The translations under genes were made by a program, and so were the position numbers. Below, piece after piece: positions 1,224 to 19,609 of a stretch of 41,176 nucleotides of DNA (positions within the stretch are counted from its first letter, which is position 1; every line of letters begins with the position of its first letter). The stretch is from Promethearchaeota archaeon (GTDB lineage Archaea > Asgardarchaeota > Lokiarchaeia > Sigyniarchaeales > SOKP01): NCBI GenBank assembly GCA_048938895.1, contig JBHLLU010000035.1:1-41176 (forward strand), given 5' to 3'. A model generated the notes under the pieces. It was not told the origin of the DNA. It did not search any database and saw only the letters and a list, made by a program, of their open reading frames with translations.

Positions 1224-3167
1224 ATGATTAGTAATGAAAATCATCGGATTGGATACTATGCATGTCAATGAGGTGTAAATATCAAAACTAAAGTAGATTG
1301 TGATGAGTTAGTAGATTACGTTAAAAATCTTGGTGATGAAATTGTTATATCAAAGAAAAATTCATTTCTTTGAACTGATAATGCACAAAATGAAATAATT
1401 GAAGATATCGAAGAAAAGAACCTAAATAGAATAGTTGCATCGGCTTGAACACCCCGAACACATGAAGTAATTTATAGGAGCACTATTAGTAAAACAAATC
1501 TAAACCCCTATTTCTTCCAAATGGTAAATGTACGCGAACACTGTTCTTGGTGTACAGAAAGTAAAGAAGAAGCTACCGAAAAAGCAAAGAAATTAGTGAA
1601 AGGCGGTATCGAGCGAGTCAAAGTCCTAGAACCCGTTCCTATTAAAACGGTTCCGGTTACCAAAGCTACATTAGTAATCGGAGGAGGGATCGGTGGGATG
1701 AATGCTGCACTTGATTTAGCCAATCAGGGTGTCAAGGTTTATCTAGTAGAACAAAAAACCACAATTGGGGGAAGAATGTCTCAATTAGATAGAACTTTTC
1801 CCACAGATGATTGTGCAATATGAATTTGCGGGCCAAAAATGTTAGAAGTCAATAGGAATGAGAATATCGAATTACTTAGTTATAGTGAAGTAAAAAAAAT
1901 TGAGGGTTATGTAGGGAATTATAAGGTAACAGTCGAGAAAAAACCAAGATACACAACAGATGAATGTAATGGGTGTGGAGCTTGCGCAGAAGTATGCCCT
2001 GTATATACAACTAATTACTTTGATGAGAATCTTGGAGCACGAAAAGCTATAGACATTCCATTTGGTCAAGCAGTCCCTTTCCTATATGACATTGATAGAG
2101 ATGCTTGTGTAGAATGCTTTTCATGAGTTGATGCTTGTGAACTGGATGCTATTAACTTTAGCCAAGAACCAAGTGAAATAGAATTTAAAGTAGGTACAGT
2201 TATAATAGCTACAGGGTGGGACATTCATGAACCATTTGGTGAGTATGGTTATGGTGAGTTTGAAAATGTGATAACTCAGGCTCAACTCGAAAGAATGTTA
2301 GCTCCTAATGGCCCTTTGGAAGGACACATGAGAAGAATCTCAGATGATAAAAAACCCAAAGAAATTGTGTTCATCCAATGTGTTGGTAGTAGAGAAACTG
2401 AGAGAACATATTGTAGTGGAGTTTGTTGTATGCTTGCTTTAAAGAATGGGCGACTACTTTTGGAAGAATTCCCGGATGCTAAGATTACCATTTGTTATAT
2501 CGACATAAGAACTCCCGAAAAGGGATTTGAGGAATATTATGAGCGAGCTAAGGATGCAGGTATTAGACTGATTCGGGGAAAAGTTGGTGAAATTTCAGAG
2601 GATCCTGAAACAAAAAACATAAAAGTTCGAGTATATTCCACATTAACAGACAAAATCGTTAGGATTGATGCTGATTTAGTGGTATTATCTACAGCAGCAT
2701 TACCATCAAAAGGAACTCAACAAATTGTAAATGTTTTAAATCTTGATACAAATACGTATGGTTTTTTAACAGAATCACATTTCGGTTTAATGCCCCAAGA
2801 AACTAAATCAAAAGGAATTTTTATTGCAGGTTTCGCCCAAGGACCGAAGAATATTGCTTATTCCGTTTCTCAAGCTAGAGCTGCAGCTAGTAAAGTCGCT
2901 GAATTAACAGCTCCGGGAGAGATTGATATTGAGTTAATTACTGCTGAGGTTGATGGAGAATACTGCATCTTTTGCAGACGATGTGAAAAAGAATGCCCTA
3001 AGAATGCTATTAAGATTGATAAGGAGATTGGGGCATTTATTGATGAAATAAATTGTGATGGATGTGGTATATGTGCTGCTTGTTGCCCAACTCAAGCTAT
3101 TGATATAAGATATTATAGAGACCATCAAATTTTTGCTCAAATTGATGGATTGCTAGGAGGCGGTTAA
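1224..3167 (+). CDS. hdrA: Heterodisulfide reductase subunit A, selenoprotein with five predicted Sec (647 aa)
   Basis: One frame joins ORFs 1521-1823, 1839-2126 and 2268-3167 with an unlisted N-terminus. TGA at 1269, 1371, 1446, 1821 and 2124 gives ACQUG, SFLUT, SAUTPRTHE, DCAIUI and CVECFSUVDAC. Paralogues have CHCG, LYTCS, ASCTPRTHE, DCAICI and CxxCxxCxxxC. GGGIGG FAD motif, QCVGSR/YCSGVCC and a C-terminal ferredoxin are present. Confidence 0.92.
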
Positions 3168-3170
3168 ACA

Positions 3171-3644
3171 ATGGATAACTATAAATATAAGATTATTGCT
3201 TTTGCTTGTTTAAAATGAGGCTATAGCGCTGCTGATCTAGCGGGAGTATCTCGATTAAAATATCCCTCTTCTGTAAAAATCATTAGAGTACGTTGTACAG
3301 GGAGAGTTGATTTAAAGCATATACTTTATAGCATCAAAAGTGGAGCAGACGGTGTAATGGTTGTTGGATGACGACCTAATGAATGTCAGTTTAAAAAAGG
3401 GAATTTTACAGCTCAGAAACATATCGATTTAGCAAATAGGATTTTAGAGTCAAGAGGTTTCGGGAATCAAAGAATAAATATGTACTGGTTGAGTGGAGCA
3501 GAATCAGAAAAATTTGTAAAAAGTGTCGAAGATGCTATTGAAAAAGTAAAATTACTAGGTCCGAGTCCGCTTAACCTAATTGATAAGGAAGCAGAAATAG
3601 AAACCGAAGACACCAAACAGGTAATAATTGCCCCTATAGAATGA
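3171..3644 (+). CDS. mvhD: MvhD/VhuD-type [2Fe-2S] subunit, selenoprotein with two predicted Sec (157 aa; 160 aa ending at 3653 if the last TGA is read through)
   Basis: Absent from the ORF track. Reads MDNYKYKIIAFACLK-U(3216)-GYSAADLAGVSR...RCTGRVD...GADGVMVVG-U(3369)-RPNEC...LSGAE. Aligns with CCNWCSYAGADLAG and GCHIGDC in the Cys paralogues. SD GGAGG at 3156-3160. Confidence 0.9.
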
Positions 3645-3676
3645 TTCTCATAAAAAAATTCTAGTTATGAGATAAC
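3641..3676 (+). promoter_or_regulatory. Candidate SECIS-like hairpin with a non-canonical core
   Basis: AUGA-U-UCUCAUAA-(AAAAAUUCUAG loop)-UUAUGAGA-U-AA: an 8-bp stem with an A-rich 5' loop, directly 3' of the selenoprotein genes. The 3' core is AA, not the canonical GA. Confidence 0.35.
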
Positions 3677-3756
3677 TAACCTTGCGGAGGAAGGGGTCTT
3701 AAATTAGTATTCAATTCAAGAAATAAATTGTTTTTATAATAATAAATTAATCCAGA

Positions 3757-5265
3757 ATGGTTGGACATATGGTTCAAATTTCAAAAGGACTAAATTTTAA
3801 TGGGATTTCACCAAAAAATTTAATGGATGCTACCTATAATGCGCTTGAAAATTTTCAGATTAGAGCAATTTTTGAAGCAAAAGATGAAATCTTGAAAACG
3901 GGTAAATATTCCGAAGAAGAATTTTATAAATTATTAGATGCCATGATTGATGCTGAAACTGAACGTAAATTAATCCTAGAATCATTAAAAGGGAAAGAAC
4001 CATTATTTTTGGAAGAAATTGCGGAAACTATAAATGAATTCCCCTCTGAAAATGTCATTCGTGATGTACTGTACCTCAAAGAACAAGGATATATTGAGGA
4101 ACAAATTGAAATTAAGACTAAAACTGTTATAAAAAAAATTAAAGGAGAAGAGAAAGAAGTTGAAGAAAAAGAATATTTCTATCGATACCAAGTGAATGAT
4201 ATCCTTGAAAATTTTATGGAACATTTTTTTGAACCTGTTTCTATTGTATTTAATTCTGAGGTATGTTGTCAATGTGGTTGGTGCTCATCAATCTGTCCTG
4301 TTAACGCTATAATAGTAACAGCAGATACTTTAGAGATTGATGAGACTGCTTGTATGAAATGTGGTTTATGCTATTCTGTCTGCCCGAGATCATTTTCAAT
4401 TGAACAGGCAGGTAAAAGTATAAAAAAAATTGATAAATCTCTAACATTTTCAGAGATGATTAATGGATATATTAATACATATTCAGCTTCTACCACTAAA
4501 GATGAAATTAAAAAAGTCAGACAAGATGGAGGAATTGTTACTTCTCTACTTGAGCACTTACTCAAGAGTAATTTAGTGGATGCAATCATAGCTGTAAAAC
4601 ATTCAGAGAATCTATGGAAACCTGAACCCGTAATAATAGATAATGTTAATGATTTATATAACACTAGTGGTACCAAATATGCAAACGCCTCAACCTTAAG
4701 TATTCTAGATAAAGCAAGATCTTACAAAAACATCGCTGTAGTAGGTGTTCCATGTATGATGAATGCCTTAGAAAAAGGTAGTTTGTATCCAAGTGGTCAA
4801 CCTTTCTTCGATAATATAAAATATCGAATAGGTCTTTTTTGTATGGAGTCGTTTCCTTATGAAGGCGTTCTTAACTTAATTAAGGAGCAATTTCAGGCAG
4901 ATTTCAAGAAAGTAACAAAAATGGACATAAGTGGGGGAAAATTCATTATATATCTAGATTCCGGAGAGGATTTAAATGTTCCATTGAATGCTGTTAAATC
5001 TTATGCCCGTCATAATTGTCACTATTGTGAAGACCTAACTGCTGATTATGCTGATATCTCTGTTGGTTCTATTGGTTCTCCTAGTGGTTGGTCTACGGTA
5101 ATTACTAGAAATAAAAAAGGTGACAAAATCTTTAAAGATGCAGTTAAGGCGGGATTAATAGAGTTTAAAAGTTTAAAGGAGGTAAAACCAGGACAAGCTT
5201 TACTTGAAAGGATTGCTGGTACAAAAAGAAAAAATTGCAAACCTATTTTGTTACATAAGGATTAA
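3757..5265 (+). CDS. FrhB/FdhB-family F420-binding subunit with N-terminal helical/winged-helix region and 2[4Fe-4S] ferredoxin domain
   Basis: CCQCGWCSSICP and CMKCGLCYSVCP, plus FrhB motifs QDGGIVT, GTKY, VGVPC, IGLFCMESF and CHYCEDLTADYADISVG. Alternative start at 3769. Confidence 0.85.
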   Translation: MVGHMVQISKGLNFNGISPKNLMDATYNALENFQIRAIFEAKDEILKTGKYSEEEFYKLLDAMIDAETERKLILESLKGKEPLFLEEIAETINEFPSENVIRDVLYLKEQGYIEEQIEIKTKTVIKKIKGEEKEVEEKEYFYRYQVNDILENFMEHFFEPVSIVFNSEVCCQCGWCSSICPVNAIIVTADTLEIDETACMKCGLCYSVCPRSFSIEQAGKSIKKIDKSLTFSEMINGYINTYSASTTKDEIKKVRQDGGIVTSLLEHLLKSNLVDAIIAVKHSENLWKPEPVIIDNVNDLYNTSGTKYANASTLSILDKARSYKNIAVVGVPCMMNALEKGSLYPSGQPFFDNIKYRIGLFCMESFPYEGVLNLIKEQFQADFKKVTKMDISGGKFIIYLDSGEDLNVPLNAVKSYARHNCHYCEDLTADYADISVGSIGSPSGWSTVITRNKKGDKIFKDAVKAGLIEFKSLKEVKPGQALLERIAGTKRKNCKPILLHKD

Positions 5266-5294: not shown

Positions 5295-6566
5295 GTGAAT
5301 TCAATAACTGAGTCAAGAAAAGTAAAAAAGGATAAACCAACGGAACAATTTTTATCTTTAAACAAGATTTACGAGCCAGATTTAACTGAGTTCTTAAAAA
5401 AATGCTATCAATGTGCTCGTTGCTCAGGTGTATGCCAAATCAGTAAAGTTCAAAAATTTACACCTAGTAGAATAATCCAAATGATATTAGAAGGTTTTGA
5501 AGATGAGATAATTAACAGTCAGGTTTTATGGGATTGTTTAATGTGTAATAGTTGCTTGAAGCATTGTCCTAAAGATATAAATTTCGCTGATATTGTCAGA
5601 AATGCTAGATATAAAATGCGATTAAATAACATTGAGAATCCTGCTCGTGCTATTGCTCATAAAGGTATTTATCCTCTTATGTCCGAATTAATGATTCAAG
5701 ATAAGATGTCTATTGAAAAACCATTAGATTGGATTCCAAAAGGATGTAAGATTTCAGAAAAAGGAGATATATTATATTATGTTGGTTGTTTACCCTTCTT
5801 TAATTATGAATTTGAAGGTTCATATTCTATAGCAGAAAGCACATTAAAAATTATGTGCAAATTGGAAGAAGATCCAATTGTAGTTCAAAAAGATGAAATC
5901 TGTTGTGGTCATGATTTATATTGGGGTCAAGCAAAATTCGAAGAATTTATTGAATTAGCAAAAAGAAACATCAGTAATTTTGAAAAAGCAGGTATCCAAT
6001 CAATAGTTACAGCTTGTGCTGAATGCTACAGAACTTTTAAAATTGATTATCCAAATATTTTTGATGATTTTAACAAAAAATTTAAAGTTACACATATAAT
6101 TGAATATATTTTTGATAAATGGAAGCAAGGAAAAGTTCAATTTAAAAATCCTACTAAATCAAATGAAGTAATACCATTTACTTATCACGATCCCTGTAGG
6201 TTAAGTAGATTTTTGCCAAAAGATAATAAAATAACTGAGAAAGTCCGAGAGATTTTTACCCATTTGAAAACAATAGGATATCGCTTTAAAGAAATGGAAC
6301 ATAATAAAGAAAATTCCTATTGTTGTGGGGTAAATTCTTGGATGAATTGTAATGAAAAATCAAAAGCCTTAAGATATAAACGCCTTTTGGAAGCTAAGGC
6401 TGTTGGCATAAAGATGATTACTTCTTGTCCAAAATGTCGAATGCATTTAAATTGTTTAAAGAAGGATTATGAGGACTTTTCTGAAATTGAAATTTTAGAT
6501 TTTTCTGAATTTTTAGTAGATATGATTGAAATAGTTAATTCTAATCAAAATGAGGAAGAAAAGTAA
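5295..6566 (+). CDS. HdrD-like (HdrC-HdrB fusion) Fe-S oxidoreductase
   Basis: Two CxxCxxCxxxC motifs, then two CCG domains (VGC..CCG..CAEC; HDPC..CCG..CPKC). GTG start. Stop overlaps the next ATG (TAATG). Confidence 0.85.
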   Translation: MNSITESRKVKKDKPTEQFLSLNKIYEPDLTEFLKKCYQCARCSGVCQISKVQKFTPSRIIQMILEGFEDEIINSQVLWDCLMCNSCLKHCPKDINFADIVRNARYKMRLNNIENPARAIAHKGIYPLMSELMIQDKMSIEKPLDWIPKGCKISEKGDILYYVGCLPFFNYEFEGSYSIAESTLKIMCKLEEDPIVVQKDEICCGHDLYWGQAKFEEFIELAKRNISNFEKAGIQSIVTACAECYRTFKIDYPNIFDDFNKKFKVTHIIEYIFDKWKQGKVQFKNPTKSNEVIPFTYHDPCRLSRFLPKDNKITEKVREIFTHLKTIGYRFKEMEHNKENSYCCGVNSWMNCNEKSKALRYKRLLEAKAVGIKMITSCPKCRMHLNCLKKDYEDFSEIEILDFSEFLVDMIEIVNSNQNEEEK

Positions 6567-9500
6567 TGGAAAAAATTGGAGCTGTTTTAGTTATTGGTGG
6601 TGGTATTGCAGGTATTCAAACGTCGATAGATTTAGCAGATTCTGGCTTTAAAGTTTATCTAGCAGAATCTACAACAAGTATTGGTGGGGTAATGTCTCAA
6701 TTGGATAAGACTTTTCCAACTAATGACTGTGCAATTTGCATACTTGCCCCCAAATTAGTTCAAACTGGTCGTCATGAAAATATAGATATTTTGATTAATT
6801 CTTCAATTGAAAAAATTGATGGGAAACCTGGAAATTTTCTGGTTGACCTAACACAAAAGACCCTCCGACTGGATCAAAATAAATGCACTGGATGCGGCTT
6901 ATGCGCACAAGAATGTCCAATAGAGGCTATAGATTATTTTAATGAGAAATTTTCTAATAAAGCAGCAATTTCCGTAAAATTTCCCCAAGCAGTCCCATTA
7001 GTATATTCTATTAACAGAGAAAAATGTATTGGCTGTGGAATATGTAAAGGAATTTGTAAAGCCAAAGCTATAGATTATGAACTTCAAAATATAGAATTAA
7101 CTCTCAATGTGGGTGCAGTAGTGGTGGCAGTTGGATTTGATGAATATGATCCTACTCCATTAAAACAATATGGCTACGGAAAATACCTAAACGTGATTAC
7201 TAGTATTGAATTTGAGCGTATTCTTAGTGCTAGTGGACCACATTCAGGTTTAATACTGCGCCCTTCTGATGGAATTATTCCCAGAAAAATAGCTTTTTTA
7301 CATTGTATCGGTTCAAGAGACAGAAAACAAGGTATTGAGTATTGTTCCTCAGTATGTTGTATGTATACTACAAAAGAAGCAGTAATCGCAAAAGAACATA
7401 TGAATATTGTAGAGCCAACTATTTTTACGATGGATATAAGGGCGTTTGGTAAAGATTTCGATAAATATATTGAGCGAGCGAGAGATGAATATGGAGTAAG
7501 ATATATTAGGCGCAGGATTTCTTTTTTAAAAGAAGATCCCAACACAAAAAACCTTAAAGTCTATTATGAAATGGAAAATGGTAGAATAGTAGAAGAAGTT
7601 TTCAATCTAGTAATTCTTTCTGTAGGGATGCAACCTAATAATCAAGCAAAAGAATTGGCAAAGAAGTTAAATTTTGAATTAAATGAATATGGATTTTGTA
7701 AAACTGATACATTTTCTCCAGTAGAGACTTCAAGACCCGGGATTTATGTTTGTGGCGCTTTTTCATCCCCGAAAGATATTCCAGAAACAGTAATTGAAGC
7801 TAGTGCGGCTGCAGGACGTGTTAATGTTCTTTTATCAGAAGCAAGAAATAAACTAATCTCAAAGAAAGAACTACCAGCAGAAATTGATGTTAGTCATCAA
7901 CCTCCACGTATAGGAGTATTCATTTGTCATTGTGGTATAAATATTGGGGGTGTGGTTGATGTTCCTGGTGTGGTGGAATATGTTAAAACATTACCAAATG
8001 TTGTTTATGCAGAACATAATTTATATACTTGTTCTGCAGATACACAAACCAATATTAAGGAAAAAATAACAAAAAACAATCTTAATAGGGTTATTGTTGC
8101 CTCATGCACTCCAAGAACACATGAACCTTTATTTCAAGCAACTATAAGGGAGGTTGGTTTGAATAAGTATCTTTTTGAAATGGTTAACATCCGAGATCAA
8201 TGTTCATGGGTTCATATGCATGAACCAGAATTAGCAACAGCAAAATCAAAAGATTTGCTGAGGATGTCAATCGCAAAGGCTAGTCAATTAATTCCTTTGC
8301 AGGAACAAGAAATTTCCGTTATAAACAAAGGATTGATAATCGGTGGGGGTGTTTCTGGCATGTCCGCAGCATTAAATCTTGCCACTCAAGGATTTGAAGT
8401 GTTTTTGATAGAGAAGGAAGATTCTTTGGGTGGAATTGCTAAAAATCTATACATAACGTTAGAAAAAGATGATATTCAGGAATATATTAAAAACTTAATA
8501 GAAGAAGTTGAAAATAATCCACTTATCCAAGTATATAAAAACACACAAATTAATTCAATCTCAGGATATATTGGTAATTTTACTACTAATATCAGCTACC
8601 AAAATAGGAAAAAAAGTATTGATCTTGACCATGGAATAATAATTGTAGCAACTGGAGCAAAAGAATACCATCCAACAGAATATAATTTCGGGAGTGATCA
8701 AAGAATAATAACTCAAACTGAATTTGAGAAACTAATGTATACTACAGATAAAATAAATGGATTGAAATCAATTGTTATGATTCAATGTGTAGGATCACGA
8801 AATGAAGATCACCCATATTGTAGTCGAATTTGCTGTTCAGAAGCGATTAAAAATGCTTTGAAGGCAAAAGAGATCAACCCTGACATTGAAATTGTGGTTT
8901 TATATCGTGATATTAGAACATATGGTTTTAAAGAAAAATATTACAACTTAGCACGAGATAGAAAAGTCATATTTGTGAGATTTGATGAATCAAATCCCCC
9001 AGATCTTAAAATAAAAAACAAACAAGTGAAAATAATTGTAAACAACCCCGATCTTGGAGAACTTGAATTAAATCCAGATCTAATTGTATTAAGTACTGGA
9101 TTGGTTGCACCCATAGAGGAAAACGAAGACCTAGCGAAGATGTTAAAGGTTCCACTTAATGAAGACAAGTTCTTCTTAGAAGCTCATGTTAAATTAAGAC
9201 CAATTGATTTTGCAACAGACGGTATATATTTATGTGGATGTGCCCATTCACCTAAAAATATTAGAGAATCAATAGCGCAATCCTATGGTGCTGCTGCTCA
9301 AGCAGTCAAGATTTTAAGTGCTGAAAAAATTGTAACCTCTGGACTCGTTGCTGCGGTGATAGAAGAAAATTGTATTGGTTGTGGAAGTTGTCTTGAAGTT
9401 TGTCAGTTTAATGCCATTGAATTAATTGAAAAAGAAAAGGATTTTGAGGACTTTACATTTGTTATAAAAAAATCTCATATCAACCCTGCACTTTGCAAAG

Positions 9501-9607
9501 GATGCGGTACTTGTGGAGCACAGTGCCCTAATTCCACAATTGTTATTAAACATTTTGGATTTGAACAAATCCATGCTATGATCTCTGCATTATTAACCCC
9601 TAGTTAA
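6566..9607 (+). CDS. hdrA: Long double-FAD HdrA-like protein (Cys form)
   Basis: Two GGGxxG motifs, DKTFPTNDCAIC, internal CHCG..SCTPRTHE domain, two CxGSR/YCSxxCC modules and ferredoxin motifs. Confidence 0.9.
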   Translation: MEKIGAVLVIGGGIAGIQTSIDLADSGFKVYLAESTTSIGGVMSQLDKTFPTNDCAICILAPKLVQTGRHENIDILINSSIEKIDGKPGNFLVDLTQKTLRLDQNKCTGCGLCAQECPIEAIDYFNEKFSNKAAISVKFPQAVPLVYSINREKCIGCGICKGICKAKAIDYELQNIELTLNVGAVVVAVGFDEYDPTPLKQYGYGKYLNVITSIEFERILSASGPHSGLILRPSDGIIPRKIAFLHCIGSRDRKQGIEYCSSVCCMYTTKEAVIAKEHMNIVEPTIFTMDIRAFGKDFDKYIERARDEYGVRYIRRRISFLKEDPNTKNLKVYYEMENGRIVEEVFNLVILSVGMQPNNQAKELAKKLNFELNEYGFCKTDTFSPVETSRPGIYVCGAFSSPKDIPETVIEASAAAGRVNVLLSEARNKLISKKELPAEIDVSHQPPRIGVFICHCGINIGGVVDVPGVVEYVKTLPNVVYAEHNLYTCSADTQTNIKEKITKNNLNRVIVASCTPRTHEPLFQATIREVGLNKYLFEMVNIRDQCSWVHMHEPELATAKSKDLLRMSIAKASQLIPLQEQEISVINKGLIIGGGVSGMSAALNLATQGFEVFLIEKEDSLGGIAKNLYITLEKDDIQEYIKNLIEEVENNPLIQVYKNTQINSISGYIGNFTTNISYQNRKKSIDLDHGIIIVATGAKEYHPTEYNFGSDQRIITQTEFEKLMYTTDKINGLKSIVMIQCVGSRNEDHPYCSRICCSEAIKNALKAKEINPDIEIVVLYRDIRTYGFKEKYYNLARDRKVIFVRFDESNPPDLKIKNKQVKIIVNNPDLGELELNPDLIVLSTGLVAPIEENEDLAKMLKVPLNEDKFFLEAHVKLRPIDFATDGIYLCGCAHSPKNIRESIAQSYGAAAQAVKILSAEKIVTSGLVAAVIEENCIGCGSCLEVCQFNAIELIEKEKDFEDFTFVIKKSHINPALCKGCGTCGAQCPNSTIVIKHFGFEQIHAMISALLTPS

Positions 9608-9625: not shown

Positions 9626-10057
9626 ATGTCAAAATCAAAAAAGAAAGCAATCAAAAAGGATTTTCACCCAAACATCTTAGGTTTTTGTTGCAACTGGTGT
9701 AGTTATGCCGGAGCAGATTTAGCAGGAGTTTCACGATTTCAATATCCGGCTACTATTAGAATAGTACGTGTAATGTGTTCTGGTAGAGTAGATCCTGCTT
9801 TCATTTTAGAGGCGTTTAAAGATGGTATTGATGGGGTAATTGTAACCGGTTGTCATATCGGTGACTGTCATTATTTAAAAGGAAATGAATTTGCACGAGA
9901 CAGATTCGAACGTTTCAAAGATGTTTTAAAAATTTTCAATCTTGAGAAACGTTTTAGACTTGAATGGGTAAGTGCCTCTGAAGGAAAGAGATTTTCAGAA
10001 GTGATTACAGAATTTACTAACCAAATAAAGGAACAAGGGCCTTTAAAAACACTTTAA
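9626..10057 (+). CDS. mvhD: MvhD [2Fe-2S] subunit (Cys form)
   Basis: CCNWCSYAGADLAG, MCSGRVD, GCHIGDCHY, WVSASE. SD GGAGG upstream. Confidence 0.92.
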   Translation: MSKSKKKAIKKDFHPNILGFCCNWCSYAGADLAGVSRFQYPATIRIVRVMCSGRVDPAFILEAFKDGIDGVIVTGCHIGDCHYLKGNEFARDRFERFKDVLKIFNLEKRFRLEWVSASEGKRFSEVITEFTNQIKEQGPLKTL

Positions 10058-11536: not shown

Positions 11537-14500
11537 ATGGAAGGATCAGTATTAGTTATTGGTGGAGGGATTGCTGGGATTCAAACGTCTTTAGATTTAA
11601 CTGAATTAGGTTTTAAAGTTTATTTAGTGGAAAAAACACCTTCAATTGGAGGAAGGATGGCTCAACTTGATAAAACATTTCCTACAAATGATTGTAGTTT
11701 ATGTATACTTGCTCCTAAAATGGTGGAGGTATTTAGAAATCCAAATATTGAATTGATGACATATCACGAGGTCCAAAAGGTTTCTGGAAAGCTTGGAAAT
11801 TTTGAGGTTTCAATTCTTAAGAAACCTCGATATATTGATGAAACTAAATGTAAGGGATGTGGGGAATGTGCAACTAAATGTCCAAAGATAGAATTTCCTA
11901 ACATTTTTGATATGAATTTAAGTAAAAGGAAGTCTGTGTATATCCCTTTTCCTCAAGCAGTTCCTCCTGTTTACTTAATTGATCCGGAATTATGCTTAAA
12001 GCTTACTAAAGGAGTGTGTGGGGTTTGTGAGAAAGTGTGCGAGGCGGAAGCAATTAATTATGAACAGAAACCTTTAGAAATTAAAATAAATGTCGGTGCG
12101 ATTGTTGCAGCCACTGGATTTGATATGTATGGCCAGGAATTAAGCTCAAGATGGGGTTATAAATTTAAAAATGTAGTAAATGCATTAGAATATGAGCGTA
12201 TGTTATCTGCTTCAGGACCATTTGGGGGTCATATTCTGCGTCCCAGTGATGGAAAAGAGCCAGAAATAATTGCATTTATTCAATGTGCAGGATCGAGAGA
12301 TTTACGTGAGGGAATTCCTTATTGCTCTAGTGTATGTTGCATGTATACAGCAAAAGAAGCAATTATAACTCGAGAGCATTCAGAAAACTCAAAATGTTTT
12401 GTGTTTAGACATGATGTTAGAGCTTATGGTAAAAATTTCTATGAATTTACTCAAAGAGCTCAAGAAGAATATGGTGTAAAATATTTCCAGACTAAAGTAA
12501 GTAGAATCATAGAAGAACCACAGACAAATGACTTAGTTATACATTATGAAGATCTTAAAACAGGTAAATTCAAAAACTTTCATGCAAATTTGGTTGTATT
12601 AGCTTCACCACTTATCCCGTCAGTAGGAACCACAGAATTAGCTAAAATATTAGATATTGAATTGGATGATTATAATTTCTTTAAAGAAAAATCATATTTT
12701 AATAAATCTTTATCTTCTAAAGAAGGAATTTATTTAGCTGGTTTCTGTCAGGGTCCAATGGATATACCAGAAACCGTAGCTGATGCCAGTGGAGTTGCTT
12801 CACAGGTGGCAACCATGCTTAATTCTTATAAATTTACTGAAACTAAAAAAGAAATTTATAAAATCCCTGAAAAAATGGTTCAAGAAGCAGATCTACCAAG
12901 AATTGGGGTTCTCATCTGTCATTGTGGCATCAATATTGGAAAATATATTGATATCCCTCAAGTTATTGAAAATATAAAAAAATTGCCTAATGTAGTTTTT
13001 TGTGAAGATAATATGTATTCTTGTAGTTCAGATTCTCAAGAAAGAATCAAAGAAGTAATAAGTGAATACGATTTGAATAGATTTATTGTAGCTTCTTGTA
13101 CACCAAGAACTCATGAATCTTTATTTCAGGAAACTTGTCAAGAAGCAGGATTAAATAAGTACTTATTTGAGATGGTTAATATTCGAGATCAATGTAGTTG
13201 GGTTCATATGACCGAAAAGGAGCTTGCAACTGAAAAGGCAATTGATTTGATAAGAATGGGTGTGGCTAAATCTAGGTTACTCAAACCACAAGAAGAGAAG
13301 GCATTACAAATCACTCAAACTGCATTGGTAATTGGTGGAGGAATCTCTGGAATGACTGCCGCCATAAATATTGCAAATCAAGGATTCTTAGTATATCTTA
13401 TAGAAAAAGAGCAATATTTAGGTGGGAATTTAAAGTATTTAAATATGCTTTACCCTACTCAAGAAGATGCATCAATTTTATTAAATAAAACTATAGAGAA
13501 GGTTAAGAAAAATAAACGAATCCAAATCTTTACAAATTCTAAAATAAAAGACGTAAAGGGATATATAGGAAATTATAATGTGCAAATTCTAGATGTAGAT
13601 AAGCAAATCCATGATTTAGAAATAGGTACTATTATTGTTGCTACAGGAGGTAAAGAATTAACTCCTAATGAGTTTTTTGATTATAAATATTCAAATCATA
13701 ATGTTATCACTCAATTACAACTAGAAACAAAATTAAAAGATGAGGACAATTCATGGCTTGACAATCTTAATCATATTACAACACTTCTATGCGTTAATGC
13801 AAGACAAAATGATGGAATAACTTATTGTTCAAATATTTGTTGTGAAAGTGCTATTAAAAATATTAATCTTCTTAAAGAATTAAAACAGGATCTTAAATTG
13901 ATAGTTTTATATAGAGATCTCCAAATGGCAAAAAAGGAATTTGAAAAATATTATCGTGAACGACGAAAAGACGCTATGTTTTTAAGATATGATTTAAATG
14001 ATCCCCCTATAATTAAAGAAAGAGATAAGGGAAAGAGTAAATTTGAAATTCAGGTTTTTGACACTAACCTACAGGATAAAATTAAATTTAACACAGATTT
14101 AATTGTATTATCGACACCAATGATTCCTGCTGATAATTTAGATGAGCTTGCCAAAATGCTTAAAGTCCCCTTAGACAAAAATGGATTTTTTCTTGAGGCC
14201 CATGTGAAATTAAGACCTTTAGATTTTGCTACAGAAGGGATATTCTTATGTGGGTGTGCACATTGGCCAAAAAATATACAAGATTCGATATCACAGGCAA
14301 ATGGCGCTGCAGGGAGGGCCTGTAGGTTTTTAAGTGCTGGGGAAATCACAACATCTGGATTAATAGCAGAGATAAATCAAGAATTATGCATCGGATGTGG
14401 AGCTTGCCAGGATACATGTTCCTATAATGCCATAGAACTTTCTAGTTCTCTTAAAGAATTTGAAGAAGTTAGTTTGCCTATTAAAAAATCTTCTGTTAAT

Positions 14501-14617
14501 TCGGGATTATGCAAAGGTTGTGGGACCTGTGCTGTTAATTGTCCAGTTGGAGCAATTTCTATCAAACATTACAATTTTGAACAAATTAACGCTATGATTA
14601 GAACATTAGCAATGTAA
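11537..14617 (+). CDS. hdrA: Long double-FAD HdrA-like protein (Cys form)
   Basis: Same architecture as 6566-9607: DKTFPTNDCSLC, QCAGSR, CHCG, SCTPRTHE, EAHVKLRP and a C-terminal ferredoxin. Confidence 0.9.
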   Translation: MEGSVLVIGGGIAGIQTSLDLTELGFKVYLVEKTPSIGGRMAQLDKTFPTNDCSLCILAPKMVEVFRNPNIELMTYHEVQKVSGKLGNFEVSILKKPRYIDETKCKGCGECATKCPKIEFPNIFDMNLSKRKSVYIPFPQAVPPVYLIDPELCLKLTKGVCGVCEKVCEAEAINYEQKPLEIKINVGAIVAATGFDMYGQELSSRWGYKFKNVVNALEYERMLSASGPFGGHILRPSDGKEPEIIAFIQCAGSRDLREGIPYCSSVCCMYTAKEAIITREHSENSKCFVFRHDVRAYGKNFYEFTQRAQEEYGVKYFQTKVSRIIEEPQTNDLVIHYEDLKTGKFKNFHANLVVLASPLIPSVGTTELAKILDIELDDYNFFKEKSYFNKSLSSKEGIYLAGFCQGPMDIPETVADASGVASQVATMLNSYKFTETKKEIYKIPEKMVQEADLPRIGVLICHCGINIGKYIDIPQVIENIKKLPNVVFCEDNMYSCSSDSQERIKEVISEYDLNRFIVASCTPRTHESLFQETCQEAGLNKYLFEMVNIRDQCSWVHMTEKELATEKAIDLIRMGVAKSRLLKPQEEKALQITQTALVIGGGISGMTAAINIANQGFLVYLIEKEQYLGGNLKYLNMLYPTQEDASILLNKTIEKVKKNKRIQIFTNSKIKDVKGYIGNYNVQILDVDKQIHDLEIGTIIVATGGKELTPNEFFDYKYSNHNVITQLQLETKLKDEDNSWLDNLNHITTLLCVNARQNDGITYCSNICCESAIKNINLLKELKQDLKLIVLYRDLQMAKKEFEKYYRERRKDAMFLRYDLNDPPIIKERDKGKSKFEIQVFDTNLQDKIKFNTDLIVLSTPMIPADNLDELAKMLKVPLDKNGFFLEAHVKLRPLDFATEGIFLCGCAHWPKNIQDSISQANGAAGRACRFLSAGEITTSGLIAEINQELCIGCGACQDTCSYNAIELSSSLKEFEEVSLPIKKSSVNSGLCKGCGTCAVNCPVGAISIKHYNFEQINAMIRTLAM

Positions 14618-14777: not shown

Positions 14778-16058
14778 GTGAATGATATTACTGAGATTGA
14801 AAAAGTAGAAGATTCAAAAGAACTTAGTAATGAAAATAAATCCTATCTTGAAAAAATTTATGAACCAGATATAAGAAAATTATTATATCGTTGCTATCAA
14901 TGCGTTCGTTGCAGTGGTATTTGCCAACTTAGCCGAGTCCAAAGTTTTGAGCCAAGCAAGATAATTCAATTGATTTTAGAAGGATTTGAAGATAAAATTA
15001 TTGATAGTGGTATTTTGTGGGATTGTCTTACATGTAATGCATGTCTTCAGAACTGTCCTGAAGGAATTAATTTTGCAGACATAGTAAGAATGGCAAAATA
15101 TAAAATGAGAACGTCTAAAGGACAAAATCCAGATGAATATATAGCACATAAAGCAGTTTATACAACTATTTCGGAGATTATGAGTGATCCTCATATAAAG
15201 CCGCAAAGATCGCTCGAATGGGTCCCTAAAGAATGTAAAATCTCAGATCAAGGTAATATTTTATATTATGTTGGTTGTTTACCATATTTTAATTTCGAGT
15301 TCGAAAACTCAGATTCAATAGCACAGAGTACCTTAAAAATTCTATGTCAAGTCGAAAATGAACCAATTGCAGTTCTTAAAGATGAAATTTGTTGCGGGCA
15401 TGATTTATATTGGGGTCAAGGAAAACTTAACACCTTTATTGATCTTGCCAAAAAGAACATCAAAAGAATTGAACAAACTGGAGCTACTACAATTGTTACT
15501 GCCTGTGCTGAATGCTATCGAACGCTTAAAGTGGATTATCAAGATCTATTTGATGATTTCAACACAAAATTTGAAGTTAAACATTTGATTGAATATATCT
15601 ACGAGAATTGGAAGAATAACAAGATTGAATTCAAGAATCCCAGTAAACAAGAGGAACCAATTCCTTTTACTTATCATGATCCCTGCCGTTTGAGTAGATT
15701 CTTGCCTAAAGATAGTAAAATTATTGAAAACGTACGTGAAATATTCTCACATTTAAAAGATTTGGGTTATAAATTTAATGAAATGGCTCATAATAAGACC
15801 GAAGCTCTATGTTGTGGAGTAAGTTCTTGGATGAATTGTAATGATCGCTCTAAAGCCTTGCGATACAAGCGATTGTTAGAGGCAAAAGATGTAGGAGAAA
15901 TTATGGTTACTTCATGCCCAAAATGTAAAATGCATTTATCCTGTTTACAAAATGATTATGAGGATATTTCATCAATTGAGATTGTAGATTTCTCAGAATT
16001 TTTGGTAAATTTAATAAGTTTAAAAGACCCCGAAGTAAAAGAGGAGGAAGACCAATAA
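14778..16058 (+). CDS. HdrD-like (HdrC-HdrB fusion) Fe-S oxidoreductase, paralogue of 5295-6566
   Basis: Shared blocks CYQCxRCSGxCQ, KDEICCGHDLYWGQ, IPFTYHDPCRLSRFLPKD and SWMNCN. TAATG overlap with the next gene. Confidence 0.85.
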   Translation: MNDITEIEKVEDSKELSNENKSYLEKIYEPDIRKLLYRCYQCVRCSGICQLSRVQSFEPSKIIQLILEGFEDKIIDSGILWDCLTCNACLQNCPEGINFADIVRMAKYKMRTSKGQNPDEYIAHKAVYTTISEIMSDPHIKPQRSLEWVPKECKISDQGNILYYVGCLPYFNFEFENSDSIAQSTLKILCQVENEPIAVLKDEICCGHDLYWGQGKLNTFIDLAKKNIKRIEQTGATTIVTACAECYRTLKVDYQDLFDDFNTKFEVKHLIEYIYENWKNNKIEFKNPSKQEEPIPFTYHDPCRLSRFLPKDSKIIENVREIFSHLKDLGYKFNEMAHNKTEALCCGVSSWMNCNDRSKALRYKRLLEAKDVGEIMVTSCPKCKMHLSCLQNDYEDISSIEIVDFSEFLVNLISLKDPEVKEEEDQ

Positions 16059-19000
16059 TGGAGGGTTCAGTTTTAGTAATTGGTGGAGGAATCGCAGGTA
16101 TTCAAATCTCTTTGGATTTAACAGAGTTAGGATTTAAAGTGTATTTAGTTGAAAAGTCACCTTCAATTGGAGGAAGAATGGCTCAGTTGGATAAAACTTT
16201 TCCAACATTAGATTGTTCATTATGTATCCTCGCTCCCAAAATGGTTGAGGTTTATCGTAATCCTAACATTGAATTAATGACGTATCATGAGGTTCTTCAA
16301 CTTGAGGGTCAACCAGGAGATTTTACTGCTAAAATCCTGAAAAAACCAAGATACATTGATGAATCGAAATGCAAAGGATGTGGAGAATGTGCAAACAAAT
16401 GCCCAAAAATCCTAGCACCTAATCTCTTTGAAATGGATATTGGAAAACGAAAATCTGTATATATTCCATTTCCCCAAGCTGTACCTCCTATATACTTAAT
16501 TGATTCAGAGATGTGTTTATATTTAACAAAGGGAGTATGCCAAGTATGTAAAAAAGCATGCCCTGCTGATGCCATAGATTTTGAACAAAAAGCAGAAGAA
16601 TTTGAAATTAAAATTGGTGCCGTGGTTGTCGCAACAGGATATGAAATGCCTGCTGAAAAGTTATCTTCTAGATGGGGATATCGATTCGAAAATGTTGTAA
16701 GTGCTCTTGAGTATGAAAGAATACTATGTGCATCTGGTCCTTTTGGGGGTCATGTTAAACGATTAAGTGATGATAAAGAACCAGAGATTATTGCTTTTGT
16801 TCAGTGCGCCGGTTCTCGAGATCTTCATGAAAATGTCCCTTTTTGTTCTAGCGTTTGTTGCACATATACCGCAAAACAAGCAATAATAACCCAAGAACAT
16901 TCAGATAATTCACAATGTTATGTATTTCGGCATGATATAAGAGCTTACGGTAAAAATTTCTATGAATTTACTCAACGAGCCCAAGAAGAATATGGTGTGA
17001 AATATTTTCAATCTAAGATAAGTACAATCGAAGAAGATCCTGAAACAAACGATTTAATTATACGATATGAAGATCTTAAAACAGGAGAATTTAAAGATTT
17101 TAGAGCCAATCTTGTTGTGTTAGCATCACCACTTGTACCATCCAAGGGTGTTAAAGAATTAGGAAAAGCTCTTGATATCGAGTTAGATAAATATAATTTT
17201 TTCCAAGAGACATCATATTTTGATAAATTAAAATCTACTAGATCAGGGGTGTACTTATGTGGATTCTGTCAGGGACCAATGGATATTCCAGAAACAGTTG
17301 CCGATGCCAGTGGTGTTGCAGCACAAATAGCTGATTTACTTAGTTCTGTTAAATACACTCAAATGAAGGAAAAAGTTTTTGATGTACCTGAAAAAGAAGT
17401 AAAAATTACTGATGAACCCAGAATTGGTGTAATGGTTTGTCACTGCGGAATAAATATAGGAAACTATGTTGATGTACCAAGAGTTGTAGAATATGTAAAA
17501 AAACTTCCAAATGTAATAGTATGTGAAAATAATCTTTATTCTTGTTCTTCAGATTCCCAAATTAGAATTAAGGAACTAATTGCTGAACACAACTTAAACA
17601 GATTTATTGTAGCCTCATGTACTCCAAGAACGCATGAATCTTTATTTCAGGAGACATGTCAAGAAGCAGGGTTAAATAAATACTTATTTGAATTAGTGAA
17701 TATTAGAGACCAGTGCTCTTGGGTTCACATGAACGAAAAAGAAGCTGCTACAGAGAAAGCTATAGATCTAATCAGAATGCACATTGCTAAATCTAGACTA
17801 TTAAAACCCCAAAAAGAAGATAAAATTGATATTACTCATACAGCATTGGTAATTGGTGGGGGCATATCTGGAATGACTGCTGCCTTAAACACAGCAAATC
17901 AAGGGTTTAAAACTATTATTGTAGAGAAAGATAGTGAGTTAGGTGGAAACTTAAGGTTTTTAAATGTGCTTTATCCTGTTCATAAAAATGCGGTAGAATT
18001 GTTAAATGAAACAAAGGAGACAATAGAAAAGCATAGTCTCATTCAAGTATTCCTTAATGCTAAAATTGCTGATATCAAAGGGTATGTTGGGAATTATGAT
18101 GTTGTAATTAATGATTCTAACAATGAGTCTCACAATACAAAAGTAGGTACGATTATTGTCGCCACTGGAGGTCAAGAACATAAACCAAAAGGACTTTTTG
18201 AGTATGAGGAAAAAAATAAAAATGTATTAACTCAATTAGAGTTAGAACAAAAATTAAAAGATAAAGATACTTCTTGGCTAGACCAAATCAATCGAGTAAC
18301 TATAATTTTATGTGTTAATGCTCGACAAAAAGAAGGGATAACTTATTGTTCCAACATATGTTGCGCCACCTCACTTAAAAACGTAAGAATTTTAAAGGAA
18401 CTGAAACCTGATTTAGAAATTGTCGTCCTTTACCGAGATCTGCAGATGGCTAAAAAAGAGTTCGAAGAATACTACCGTGATCGTCGAAAGGATGCAATTT
18501 TTCTCAGATATGACTTGGATAAACTACCAGAAATAAAGAGGAAGAAGGGAACTCCAGAGAAGTATCAGATAAAAGTATATGACACTAATTTAAAAGAAAC
18601 TATTGACCTTGATACAGATTTTTTAATTCTTTCAACACCAATGGTTCCTTCAGATAATCTAAAAGAATTAGCCATGATGCTGAAAGTTCCATTGGATAAG
18701 AACGGTTTCTTTTTAGAAGCACATGTTAAATTGCGACCTTTAGATTTCGCTACAGACGGGATATTTCTATGTGGTTGTGCTCAATGGCCAAAAAACATAC
18801 AAGATTCAATTTCACAAGCAAATGGTGCAGCTGGTAGAGCAAGTAGATTCCTTAGTGCTGATAAAATTACCACATCTGGATTAGTAGCAGAAGTTTCTGA
18901 AGAGAAATGTATTGGTTGTGGAAAATGCGAAGAAGTATGCCCTTATAAAGCAATTAGCTTAGTAGAAATAACTAAAGAATTCGAAGATATTAAATTGATT

Positions 19001-19165
19001 GTCACAAAATCATCCATCAATGCTGCCGTATGTAAAGGATGTGGAACTTGTGCTGCAACATGCCAAGTTGGAGCTATTATGGTGAAACATTATGATTTTG
19101 ATCAGATTAACACTATGATTGATTCTTATTTATTAGAAAAGGAGGAAATTAAAAACGGATTGTAG
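16058..19165 (+). CDS. hdrA: Long double-FAD HdrA-like protein (Cys form), close paralogue of 11537-14617
   Basis: Near-identical N-terminus MEGSVLVIGGGIAGIQ and the same motif set. Confidence 0.9.
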   Translation: MEGSVLVIGGGIAGIQISLDLTELGFKVYLVEKSPSIGGRMAQLDKTFPTLDCSLCILAPKMVEVYRNPNIELMTYHEVLQLEGQPGDFTAKILKKPRYIDESKCKGCGECANKCPKILAPNLFEMDIGKRKSVYIPFPQAVPPIYLIDSEMCLYLTKGVCQVCKKACPADAIDFEQKAEEFEIKIGAVVVATGYEMPAEKLSSRWGYRFENVVSALEYERILCASGPFGGHVKRLSDDKEPEIIAFVQCAGSRDLHENVPFCSSVCCTYTAKQAIITQEHSDNSQCYVFRHDIRAYGKNFYEFTQRAQEEYGVKYFQSKISTIEEDPETNDLIIRYEDLKTGEFKDFRANLVVLASPLVPSKGVKELGKALDIELDKYNFFQETSYFDKLKSTRSGVYLCGFCQGPMDIPETVADASGVAAQIADLLSSVKYTQMKEKVFDVPEKEVKITDEPRIGVMVCHCGINIGNYVDVPRVVEYVKKLPNVIVCENNLYSCSSDSQIRIKELIAEHNLNRFIVASCTPRTHESLFQETCQEAGLNKYLFELVNIRDQCSWVHMNEKEAATEKAIDLIRMHIAKSRLLKPQKEDKIDITHTALVIGGGISGMTAALNTANQGFKTIIVEKDSELGGNLRFLNVLYPVHKNAVELLNETKETIEKHSLIQVFLNAKIADIKGYVGNYDVVINDSNNESHNTKVGTIIVATGGQEHKPKGLFEYEEKNKNVLTQLELEQKLKDKDTSWLDQINRVTIILCVNARQKEGITYCSNICCATSLKNVRILKELKPDLEIVVLYRDLQMAKKEFEEYYRDRRKDAIFLRYDLDKLPEIKRKKGTPEKYQIKVYDTNLKETIDLDTDFLILSTPMVPSDNLKELAMMLKVPLDKNGFFLEAHVKLRPLDFATDGIFLCGCAQWPKNIQDSISQANGAAGRASRFLSADKITTSGLVAEVSEEKCIGCGKCEEVCPYKAISLVEITKEFEDIKLIVTKSSINAAVCKGCGTCAATCQVGAIMVKHYDFDQINTMIDSYLLEKEEIKNGL

Positions 19166-19174
19166 GTGATACTC

Positions 19175-19609
19175 ATGTCAAAATCAAAAAATAAACCAAA
19201 AGTAGAAGGATTTGAACCAAATATTTTAGTATTCTGCTGTAATTGGTGCAGTTATGCCGGGGCTGATCTAGCAGGCGTTTCACGATTTCAGTATCCTCCT
19301 AACATAAGAATAATAAGAGTTATGTGTTCTGGTAGAGTCGATCCATCATTCGTTTTAAAAGCTTTGAAGAATGGTGCCGATGGTGTTCTGGTAAGTGGAT
19401 GTCACATTGGAGATTGTCATTATATTACGGGAAATGAATATACGCAAGAAAGATTCAAACGACTTCATACTATTTTAATTAAACAATTAGGAGTAGATCC
19501 TAAACGAGTGCGATTAGAATGGGTAAGTGCGTCTGAAGGGAAAAGATTTTCAGAAGTAATCACTGAATTTACTAATCAAATCAAAGAATTGGGACCCTTG
19601 AAATATTAA
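19175..19609 (+). CDS. mvhD: MvhD [2Fe-2S] subunit (Cys form)
   Basis: CCNWCSYAGADLAG and GCHIGDCHY. ATG 19175 preferred because it follows AGGTGA and gives MSKSK, as in the paralogue at 9626. Confidence 0.92.
   Translation: MSKSKNKPKVEGFEPNILVFCCNWCSYAGADLAGVSRFQYPPNIRIIRVMCSGRVDPSFVLKALKNGADGVLVSGCHIGDCHYITGNEYTQERFKRLHTILIKQLGVDPKRVRLEWVSASEGKRFSEVITEFTNQIKELGPLKY

Follow-up and report, generated by a model that had tools for sequence, protein, structure and literature searches.

Five in-frame UGA codons in an Asgard archaeal hdrA gene, two in the adjoining vhuD gene and a shared SECIS element predicted to recode them

Introduction

Multiple selenocysteine (Sec) residues in the paired archaeal proteins HdrA and VhuD have been in print since 2016. 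According to the accessible part of the report of Mariotti (2016, PMC4989117), the HdrA of Lokiarchaeota holds up to four Sec residues distributed over five possible positions and is accompanied in tandem by a VhuD containing two; a single shared selenocysteine insertion sequence (SECIS) element serves up to six UGA codons, the UGA adjacent to the element acts as a stop, and hdrA itself ends in UAA or UAG. The current study concerns a related locus in an Asgard archaeon, namely the hdrA gene at positions 1224-3167 (forward strand) of contig JBHLLU010000035.1 (assembly GCA_048938895.1; Promethearchaeota archaeon, SOKP01), together with the vhuD gene and the SECIS-like element that follow it; the whole stretch analysed, positions 1 to 41,176 of the forward strand of this contig, is referred to as the window. 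A preliminary description of hdrA had left open whether its pattern of five in-frame TGA codons was novel. The answer is a divided one: the multi-Sec HdrA-VhuD arrangement is of a kind already published, while five Sec codons exceed the four found in the consulted part of PMC4989117, so that the novelty of the locus lies in a fifth HdrA Sec codon, a seventh UGA and a rare Sec codon at a canonical cluster-ligand position.

Later sources are sparing on this point. The consulted main text of the Asgard survey in ISME J (2024, PMC11227280) is silent on how many Sec residues an HdrA contains and where they lie, and a 2026 review adds nothing on their number. In the open-access literature, within a limited search, no paper was found that links the Sec sites of Asgard HdrA to cluster ligation by means of structures published after 2017, and Sec as an iron-sulphur ligand in Asgard HdrA is encountered there solely as a remark in Mariotti 2016 on one C-terminal site. 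The two-Sec vhuD gene, the shared SECIS element, the Sec machinery of the genome and the earlier publication of the multi-Sec HdrA-VhuD arrangement for Lokiarchaeota all lie beyond the scope of the preliminary description.

Results

The hdrA frame comprises 647 codons followed by a TAA stop. Translation with TGA read as Sec (U) placed U at residues 16, 50, 75, 200 and 301 only and returned no internal TAA or TAG, precisely the frame set out in the preliminary description, while the opposite strand in the matching register is rich in stop codons. Under translation table 11 the frame is broken into separate open reading frames (ORFs) of 100, 95 and 299 amino acids, and fragmentation by a standard gene caller, which had been anticipated, is therefore to be expected.

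Identification of the product as HdrA was borne out by profile and structure-based comparisons. The NCBIfam model HdrA2 matched with 778.5 bits (cut-off 1100) over profile positions 1-639 of 777 and the HdrA model with 613 bits (cut-offs 1400 and 1300); these models are 762-777 positions long and are matched only from position 1 to approximately 650. Since the scores fall below the curated cut-offs, the protein is, judged by the NCBI thresholds, classified as an HdrA homologue and not as an equivalog of the methanogen enzymes. The sequences of five solved HdrA proteins in PDB cover residues 2-647 with E-values of 6e-199 to 8e-162, the best being 9sfi_A (6e-199, residues 7-645). Pfam places Pyr_redox_2/FAD (flavin adenine dinucleotide) domains at residues 146-243 and Fer4 domains at 233-310 and 574-631, and the order of domains is that of HdrA: an N-terminal iron-sulphur domain, a thioredoxin-reductase-like FAD domain, an inserted ferredoxin domain and a C-terminal ferredoxin domain. 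Comparison with the solved HdrA sequences and with paralogues revealed that the conserved cysteine set is complete, every position being occupied by Cys or Sec; it comprises residues 14, 16, 50 and 75 in the N-domain, the CxxC pair by the flavin (197 and 200), residues 248, 251, 254, 258, 295, 298, 301 and 305 in the inserted ferredoxin domain, 386, 397, 401 and 402 in the cluster motif of the FAD domain, and 581, 584, 587, 591, 611, 614, 617 and 621 in the C-terminal ferredoxin domain.

The state of the TGA codons among relatives was assessed in orthologues 74-90% identical to the query (110 loci pooled, 109 with a usable frame, 81 distinct), the relatives being metagenome-assembled genomes (MAGs) labelled Promethearchaeota, Promethearchaeia or with other Asgard names. 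HdrA matches were present in 61 of 61 sampled genomes of the family (that of the window included), the closest of them holding three to five TGAs. Codon 16 (1269-1271, forward strand, as are the other four), which lies in a CxU motif, and codon 75 (1446-1448) are TGA in all 77 orthologues that cover the respective site, and codon 200 (1821-1823) is TGA in 81 of 81, whereas codon 50 (1371-1373) is TGA in 55, TGT in 18 and TGC in 5, with 3 of the 81 not covering it. Codons 16, 50 and 75 are those that the preliminary description had placed in the N-terminal iron-sulphur domain, and each corresponds to a Cys conserved in five of five solved HdrA sequences; residue 26 of this domain is not conserved there, unlike residues 14, 16, 50 and 75 (five of five). 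Codon 200 is the second residue of the C197-x-x-U200 pair by the flavin and, as had been proposed, represents the classical Sec site, since it aligns with the Sec residue (X) 197 of 9sfi_A, Cys197 of 5odc_A and Cys205 of 8rvu_a (the M. marburgensis enzyme), site 197 aligning with Cys202 of the latter enzyme.

Codon 301 (2124-2126) is the Sec codon previously assigned to a ferredoxin motif. Within the inserted ferredoxin domain it takes the place of the third Cys in the second CxxCxxCxxxC motif, which reads CxxCxxUxxxC in the window protein. This position is Cys in five of five solved HdrA sequences and has no spare Cys adjoining it. Among the 81 orthologues it is TGA in 3 (the window gene, L035 and L044), TGT in 59 and TGC in 19; codons 298 and 614 are TGA in a single orthologue each. 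Exchange between UGA and Cys codons was thus observed at sites 50 and 301, while 16, 75 and 200 were invariably TGA, and throughout the orthologues TGA alternates only with TGT or TGC and never with Trp or Gly codons. The commonest pattern is one of four Sec codons (49 of 81), five being found in 5 of 81. In each of 30 orthologous loci hdrA terminates with TAA or TAG, in agreement with the published rule. One orthologous hdrA (L027, G041:C91:666-2642) contains an in-frame TAA besides four TGAs, which may reflect pseudogenization or faulty assembly.

Comparison with the close orthologue L024 yielded ratios of non-synonymous to synonymous substitution (dN/dS) of 0.099, 0.013, 0.046, 0.019 and 0.033 for the five segments after the first UGA (0.013-0.10 overall), and 0.61 for codons 1-15 on only 4 differences. 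With more distant orthologues synonymous sites were saturated, and the proportion of non-synonymous differences (pN) was still 0.02-0.27. These substitution patterns indicate that each stretch following a UGA is under purifying selection. No RNA run was among the sequencing runs listed for this stretch. The window was also compared with contigs from other sequencing runs, all of them DNA, run X2 representing another sample from what is likely the source's own study and run X5 a second study. Records 1, 4 and 5 of run X2, which cover codons 16/50/75, 200 and 301, exhibited 1, 0 and 0 differences, respectively, the sole difference in record 1 (window position 1538) being outside the TGA codons, while records 19 and 20 of run X5, covering codons 200 and 301, exhibited none; for runs X3 and X7, agreement at the TGAs holds among the matches listed. 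Because contigs from other samples share identical letters, the TGAs are not an assembly error.

The gene that follows, vhuD (also termed mvhD; Pfam FlpD family), occupies positions 3171-3644 on the same strand, starting 3 bases past the hdrA stop, and comprises 157 codons. Its product matches FlpD (PF02662) with 151 bits over residues 8-130. TGA is present at codons 16 (3216-3218), 67 (3369-3371) and 158, the last of which (3642-3644, within the AUGA of the SECIS element) is very probably the stop codon. Residues U16 and U67 align with both Sec residues (X) of the methanococcal VhuD chain 9sfi_K, and both sites are Sec codons in 76 of 76 orthologous vhuD genes; in every orthologous locus that reaches far enough, vhuD is the next gene after hdrA.

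A candidate Lokiarchaeota-type SECIS element was delineated at 3630-3697 (forward strand), overlapping the end of vhuD, by folding and by alignment of 28 orthologous loci (30 were fetched, of which 2 ended before the element). It consists of a lower stem (3630-3635 with 3692-3697), an AUGA core (3641-3644) that supplies the vhuD stop codon, an upper stem of nine positions (3645-3653 with 3665-3673; eight Watson-Crick pairs and a U-U at the base in the window copy), an apical loop of 11 nucleotides opening with a run of A (3654-3664), and a 3' core AA (3674-3675). The element thus combines an AUGA...GA/AA core, a stem of approximately 9 base pairs and an 11-nucleotide A-rich loop, as in the Lokiarchaeota SECIS (lokiSECIS), by the end of the last selenoprotein gene. 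A by-eye count of the alignment gives AUGA in 28 of 28 loci, with a 3' core of GA in 22 and of AA in 6. For the whole proposed structure 87% of cells are paired and 14 of 18 pairs have changed on both sides; in the upper stem the paired share is 94% and covariation extends to 8 of 9 pairs, and RNAalifold recovers this stem independently. The covariation score was reached by 0 of 500 shuffles, a comparison in which sequences of common descent may beat shuffles without any structure, and by no slid register, which is the safer control. At its gathering thresholds Rfam returned no family match in the window.

A small extra hairpin (3680-3690) is located between the 3' core and the lower stem. All 28 orthologous elements have it, as do 6 of the 7 copies in the window's genome; the two C-G pairs that close it hardly vary, its loop often resembles a GNRA tetraloop, and covariation is seen in a single pair. 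Two SECIS papers do not refer to such a hairpin in their main texts.

A covariance model was built from the element and the genome searched with it, 150 of approximately 7551 first-look candidates being scored. At least seven strong copies were recovered, each situated at, or at most about 20 nucleotides from, the end of an ORF with an in-frame TGA; the preceding ORFs are three hdrA-vhuD pairs (that of the window included), one lone hdrA and three short membrane-like ORFs. An eighth match (C95, E 0.006) is devoid of the AUGA core and was taken as false. For the Sec-type hdrA on contig C115 no SECIS match appeared among the 150 candidates scored, which is not evidence of absence.

The genome to which the window belongs (4.65 Mb in 174 contigs, 31% G+C, completeness 98.7%) was found to encode a Sec pathway of which four of the five components exceed curated cut-offs. 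A tRNA-Sec was detected by both ARAGORN and Rfam (61 bits, above the Rfam cut-off), with a SepSecS gene (500 bits) 180 nucleotides downstream of it and an EF-Sec gene (243 bits, barely above its cut-off) 5 kb off on the same contig. Two adjacent selD/SPS genes, each with one in-frame TGA, are located at C140:31987-34167 (forward strand); duplicated selD has been reported from 51 Loki-/Thorarchaeia organisms, as stated in the consulted part of PMC11227280. The fifth component, PSTK, is represented by a sub-threshold, PSTK-like gene. With regard to the genetic code, TGA terminates 233 of the 1956 ORFs of at least 300 codons genome-wide, and none of the 26 other window ORFs listed contains an in-frame TGA.

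Three long HdrA paralogues in the window (6566-9607, 11537-14617 and 16058-19165, forward strand) are fused double HdrAs. The preliminary description had aligned each TGA of hdrA to a Cys in these paralogues, which proved correct with the refinement that the cysteines are split over the halves of the fused proteins, the first half containing those for sites 200 and 301 and the second those for 16, 50 and 75. The two halves consequently display complementary cysteine patterns, the first keeping the C197/C200 pair and the inserted ferredoxin domain, and the same pattern is described for HdrA fusions of anaerobic methanotrophic archaea (ANME) and Moorella in the accessible part of PMC9012536. In the half that keeps C14, C16, C50, C75 and H80, C197 and C200 are jointly lost, and this joint loss fits a pair that would act in trans with an N-domain. 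MvhD-like genes follow fused HdrA genes (9626-10057 and 19166-19609) and CCG-domain genes precede them (5295-6566 and 14778-16058).

Elsewhere in the genome Sec-type HdrA is a recurring theme. At least five Sec-type hdrA genes are present, and in three cases a Sec-type vhuD separates the gene from its SECIS element; the five paralogues carry 5, 3, 2, 2 and 2 Sec codons, sites 16 and 200 being Sec in five of five. A two-Sec hdrA at C102:50785-52882 (forward strand) has a SECIS element 3 nucleotides past its own stop and no vhuD between the two, and thereby differs from the published rule that hdrA and vhuD are "always in tandem". Five HdrA paralogues of relatives were examined for Sec sites, among which L140 (G017:C12), L142 (G002:C124), L143 (G027:C1) and L141 (G019:C125) have Sec codons at other cluster-ligand cysteines, corresponding in the numbering of the window protein to 248, 298 and 617 and to a doublet of adjoining Sec at 401/402. 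One TGA of L141 stands opposite a Leu in the FAD-binding region and may be an error or a Sec site that does not derive from Cys. Short ORFs of approximately 55-110 codons with a hydrophobic stretch and one in-frame TGA were identified at C102:8486-8651 (forward strand), C51:52051-52384 (forward strand) and C144:55513-55708 (reverse strand); each ends at a strong match to the lokiSECIS model, in two of the three the TGA forms part of a UxC or CxxU motif, and all three may be small membrane-anchored selenoproteins.

In the window itself, a FrhB/FdhB-like gene with a ferredoxin domain (3757-5265, forward strand) begins 59 nucleotides past the SECIS element, and its product may be an electron-input module for the HdrA-VhuD pair. 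The CCG-domain protein gene at 5295-6566 represents a nearby HdrBC-like partner gene.

Discussion

Based on the comparisons above, we consider it highly probable that the in-frame UGAs of hdrA and vhuD are Sec codons served by the element at 3630-3697. The two genes would accordingly constitute an Asgard selenoprotein operon in which an archaeal/eukaryal-type pathway comprising tRNA-Sec, PSTK, SepSecS, SelD and EF-Sec inserts Sec at seven UGAs (five of hdrA, two of vhuD). One eukaryote-like lokiSECIS at the end of vhuD would direct the recoding of all of these UGAs on a bicistronic message, while the UGA within the SECIS core, being too near the element for recoding, would serve as the stop of vhuD, and hdrA would terminate in a UAA that is not recodable. 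Such an element acts from afar on whichever UGAs the transcript contains, so that one TGY-to-TGA change would suffice to turn any Cys of HdrA or VhuD into Sec, and a mixture of fixed (HdrA 16, 75 and 200; VhuD 16 and 67), polymorphic (HdrA 50) and sporadic Sec sites would therefore result. The sporadic sites are found at iron-sulphur ligand positions, namely 301 in the window protein and 248, 298, 401/402, 614 and 617 in relatives.

HdrA is envisaged here as the flavin-based electron-bifurcating subunit that docks the [2Fe-2S] protein VhuD/MvhD. By analogy with the solved enzymes, Sec200 and Cys197 could form a redox pair beside the FAD, and Sec16 of VhuD could be situated along the route that leads to this pair from the [2Fe-2S] cluster. 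The consulted part of PMC13580544 describes Cys202/Cys205 and MvhD Cys16 as conserved extra cysteines that sit between MvhD's [2Fe-2S] cluster and the flavin and hold a ligand of unknown nature, the position of MvhD Cys16 being that of Sec16 in the window's VhuD; a Cys-Sec197 selenylsulphide relay is proposed in the consulted part of PMC13518236, while in that of PMC9012536 Cys197 is instead numbered among the ligands of the partner's N-terminal cluster. The conserved cysteines of the N-domain further suggest that the N-terminal [4Fe-4S] cluster would have Sec at two or more of its ligands, probably three; the lower bound of two would apply under any of the published ligand schemes, which disagree. 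The likeness of motifs would also make HdrA 16/50/75 the possible equivalents of VhuD 16/42/67.

Position 301 is one that we take, by its place in the ferredoxin motif, to be a [4Fe-4S] ligand. Sec301 would then be a direct selenolate ligand of one [4Fe-4S] cluster, on the ferredoxin-output branch. Taking the sites together, we lean slightly towards an enzyme with natural selenolate-ligated iron-sulphur clusters, in which Sec301 would be a direct ligand with no spare Cys at hand and the N-terminal "shuttle" cluster would draw at least two, and probably three, of its four ligands from Sec (16, 50 and 75, alongside Cys14). Should this hold true, then selenium, with Sec200 and with Sec16 and Sec67 of VhuD, would be present at almost every station into and out of the bifurcating flavin, and the sporadic Sec sites at cluster ligands would amount to a natural mutagenesis series for studying how the exchange of selenium for sulphur affects cluster potentials in electron bifurcation.

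The alternatives to Sec decoding of the operon as a whole fare poorly. A locus that is a pseudogene, or whose TGAs are sequencing or assembly errors, such that full-length protein is never made, would explain why table 11 splits the frame into three ORFs and would have a parallel in the one orthologous locus with an in-frame TAA (L027, G041); it is nevertheless scarcely credible for a frame that has neither frameshift nor TAA or TAG, whose five TGAs all fall on conserved Cys columns, four of them common to most of the 81 orthologues, which displays purifying selection in every segment past the first UGA, recurs letter for letter in independent contigs and precedes, with vhuD, a covarying SECIS element. 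Equally improbable is the use of TGA as a sense codon throughout the genome, be it for the standard amino acids Trp or Gly, as under tables 4 or 25, or for Cys, with a selenium-free protein as the product. The hdrA frame does indeed open once TGA is read as sense, but TGA is a stop for the aforementioned 233 long ORFs and absent in-frame from the other listed ORFs of the window, it gives way in orthologues solely to TGT or TGC, and the genome possesses both a complete Sec pathway and a gene-specific SECIS element.

The case of codon 301 is more evenly balanced. Its UGA could be a recent, neutral or mildly harmful change from a Cys codon that is tolerated by virtue of the operon's SECIS element, confers no advantage and may even cut the yield of full-length protein, and we regard this as a serious possibility that nonetheless falls short of an even chance. 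In its favour, just 3 of 81 orthologues have TGA at this site, and Cys stands there in all of the closest relatives (88-90% identical); comparable lone TGAs exist in orthologues (one each at 298 and 614) and in relatives' paralogues (248, 401/402 and 617), and a TGT or TGC codon is but one base change away from TGA. Conversely, the carriers of TGA-301 are 75-80% identical to each other's group and belong to three genera (the window's own, g1; G049, g6; G054, g2), so that the origin or survival of the change was not a single event; the segment past codon 301 is constrained like the rest of the gene (dN/dS 0.033 against L024), and an identical TGA-301 is present in the second-study contig (record 20 of run X5). 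For codon 301 alone, a tolerated or mildly harmful recent change is thus indistinguishable from an adaptive one.

Besides this ambiguity, several observations weigh against the interpretation of the locus as a Sec-decoded operon with the roles outlined above. The 174-contig assembly has an estimated contamination of 7.5%, and the Sec machinery and the operon reside on different contigs; the PSTK-like gene, at 151 bits (E 5.5e-44), is below the NCBIfam cut-off of 290.5. The SECIS element of the window has a U-U mismatch at the base of its upper stem and AA, not GA, as its 3' core, and its fold taken singly is unexceptional (z = -1.43). The suggested correspondence between the HdrA N-domain and VhuD was met by a BLASTP match (E 2e-4) over just 42 residues near the C-terminal helix, and hhalign alignments of the two were not significant (probability 0.2-1.4%). 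Lastly, PMC9012536, PMC13580544 and PMC12350162, in the portions consulted, disagree on the role of residue 197 and on the location of cluster HA3, which PMC12350162 places at the C terminus.

With Sec decoding as the favoured interpretation, the locus would raise the published record for one archaeal SECIS element from six to seven recoded UGAs, over approximately 2.4 kb, and would add Sec at a bona fide [4Fe-4S] ligand position. Since hdrA and vhuD genes of the Sec type are split or shortened by standard callers, the energy metabolism of such Asgard MAGs is under-called. The flavin-side Cys pair and MvhD Cys16 constitute an unexplained electron-entry step in the consulted parts of recent cryo-electron microscopy papers (PMC13518236 and PMC13580544), and the finding that these sites are always Sec codons in the Asgard enzymes provides a useful pointer for experiments.

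The closest counterparts are the Lokiarchaeota pairs as described in the consulted part of PMC4989117, with which the window locus shares a multi-Sec HdrA followed on the same strand, after a tiny spacer (3 nucleotides here), by a two-Sec VhuD; a SECIS element only after vhuD, with a nine-position stem, an 11-nucleotide A-rich loop and an AUGA core; a UAA or UAG stop of hdrA; and the possibility that the element overlaps the coding end and its AUGA provides the stop. It differs in having five Sec codons in HdrA and seven UGAs per SECIS element, against at most four and at most six in that account. The five HdrA positions of Mariotti presumably correspond to 16, 50, 75, 200 and approximately 620; the sole iron-sulphur-motif Sec described there belongs to the last motif and is accompanied by an adjacent spare Cys, whereas Sec301 is in a motif of the inserted ferredoxin domain with no adjacent spare. 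The accessible part of the 2024 survey (PMC11227280) likewise reports hdrA and frhD/vhuD as constant neighbours with one eukaryote-like SECIS element, an AUGA_AA core variant in several Lokiarchaeia hdrA/frhD genes, as in the element of the window, and two selD genes in some genomes, as in that of the window.

The HdrA and VhuD of Methanococcales (9sfi/9t1s; Nature 2026, PMC13518236) are functionally coupled and possess Sec at the codon-200 site and at both VhuD sites, and their HdrA, matched over its full length (E 6e-199), is of the same fold family. However, methanococcal HdrA holds one Sec compared with five here, the methanogen SECIS is of the archaeal GAA_A type according to the accessible part of PMC4989117, and the methanogen enzyme reduces CoM-S-S-CoB (the mixed disulphide of coenzymes M and B). 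A more distant likeness is to vertebrate selenoprotein P and other multi-Sec proteins, in which, as noted in the consulted part of PMC4989117, many UGAs per message are recoded by distant 3' SECIS elements; selenoprotein P is an unrelated protein whose message uses two such elements and whose Sec residues function in selenium transport, in contrast to the metal-cluster and redox-relay sites proposed for HdrA and VhuD.

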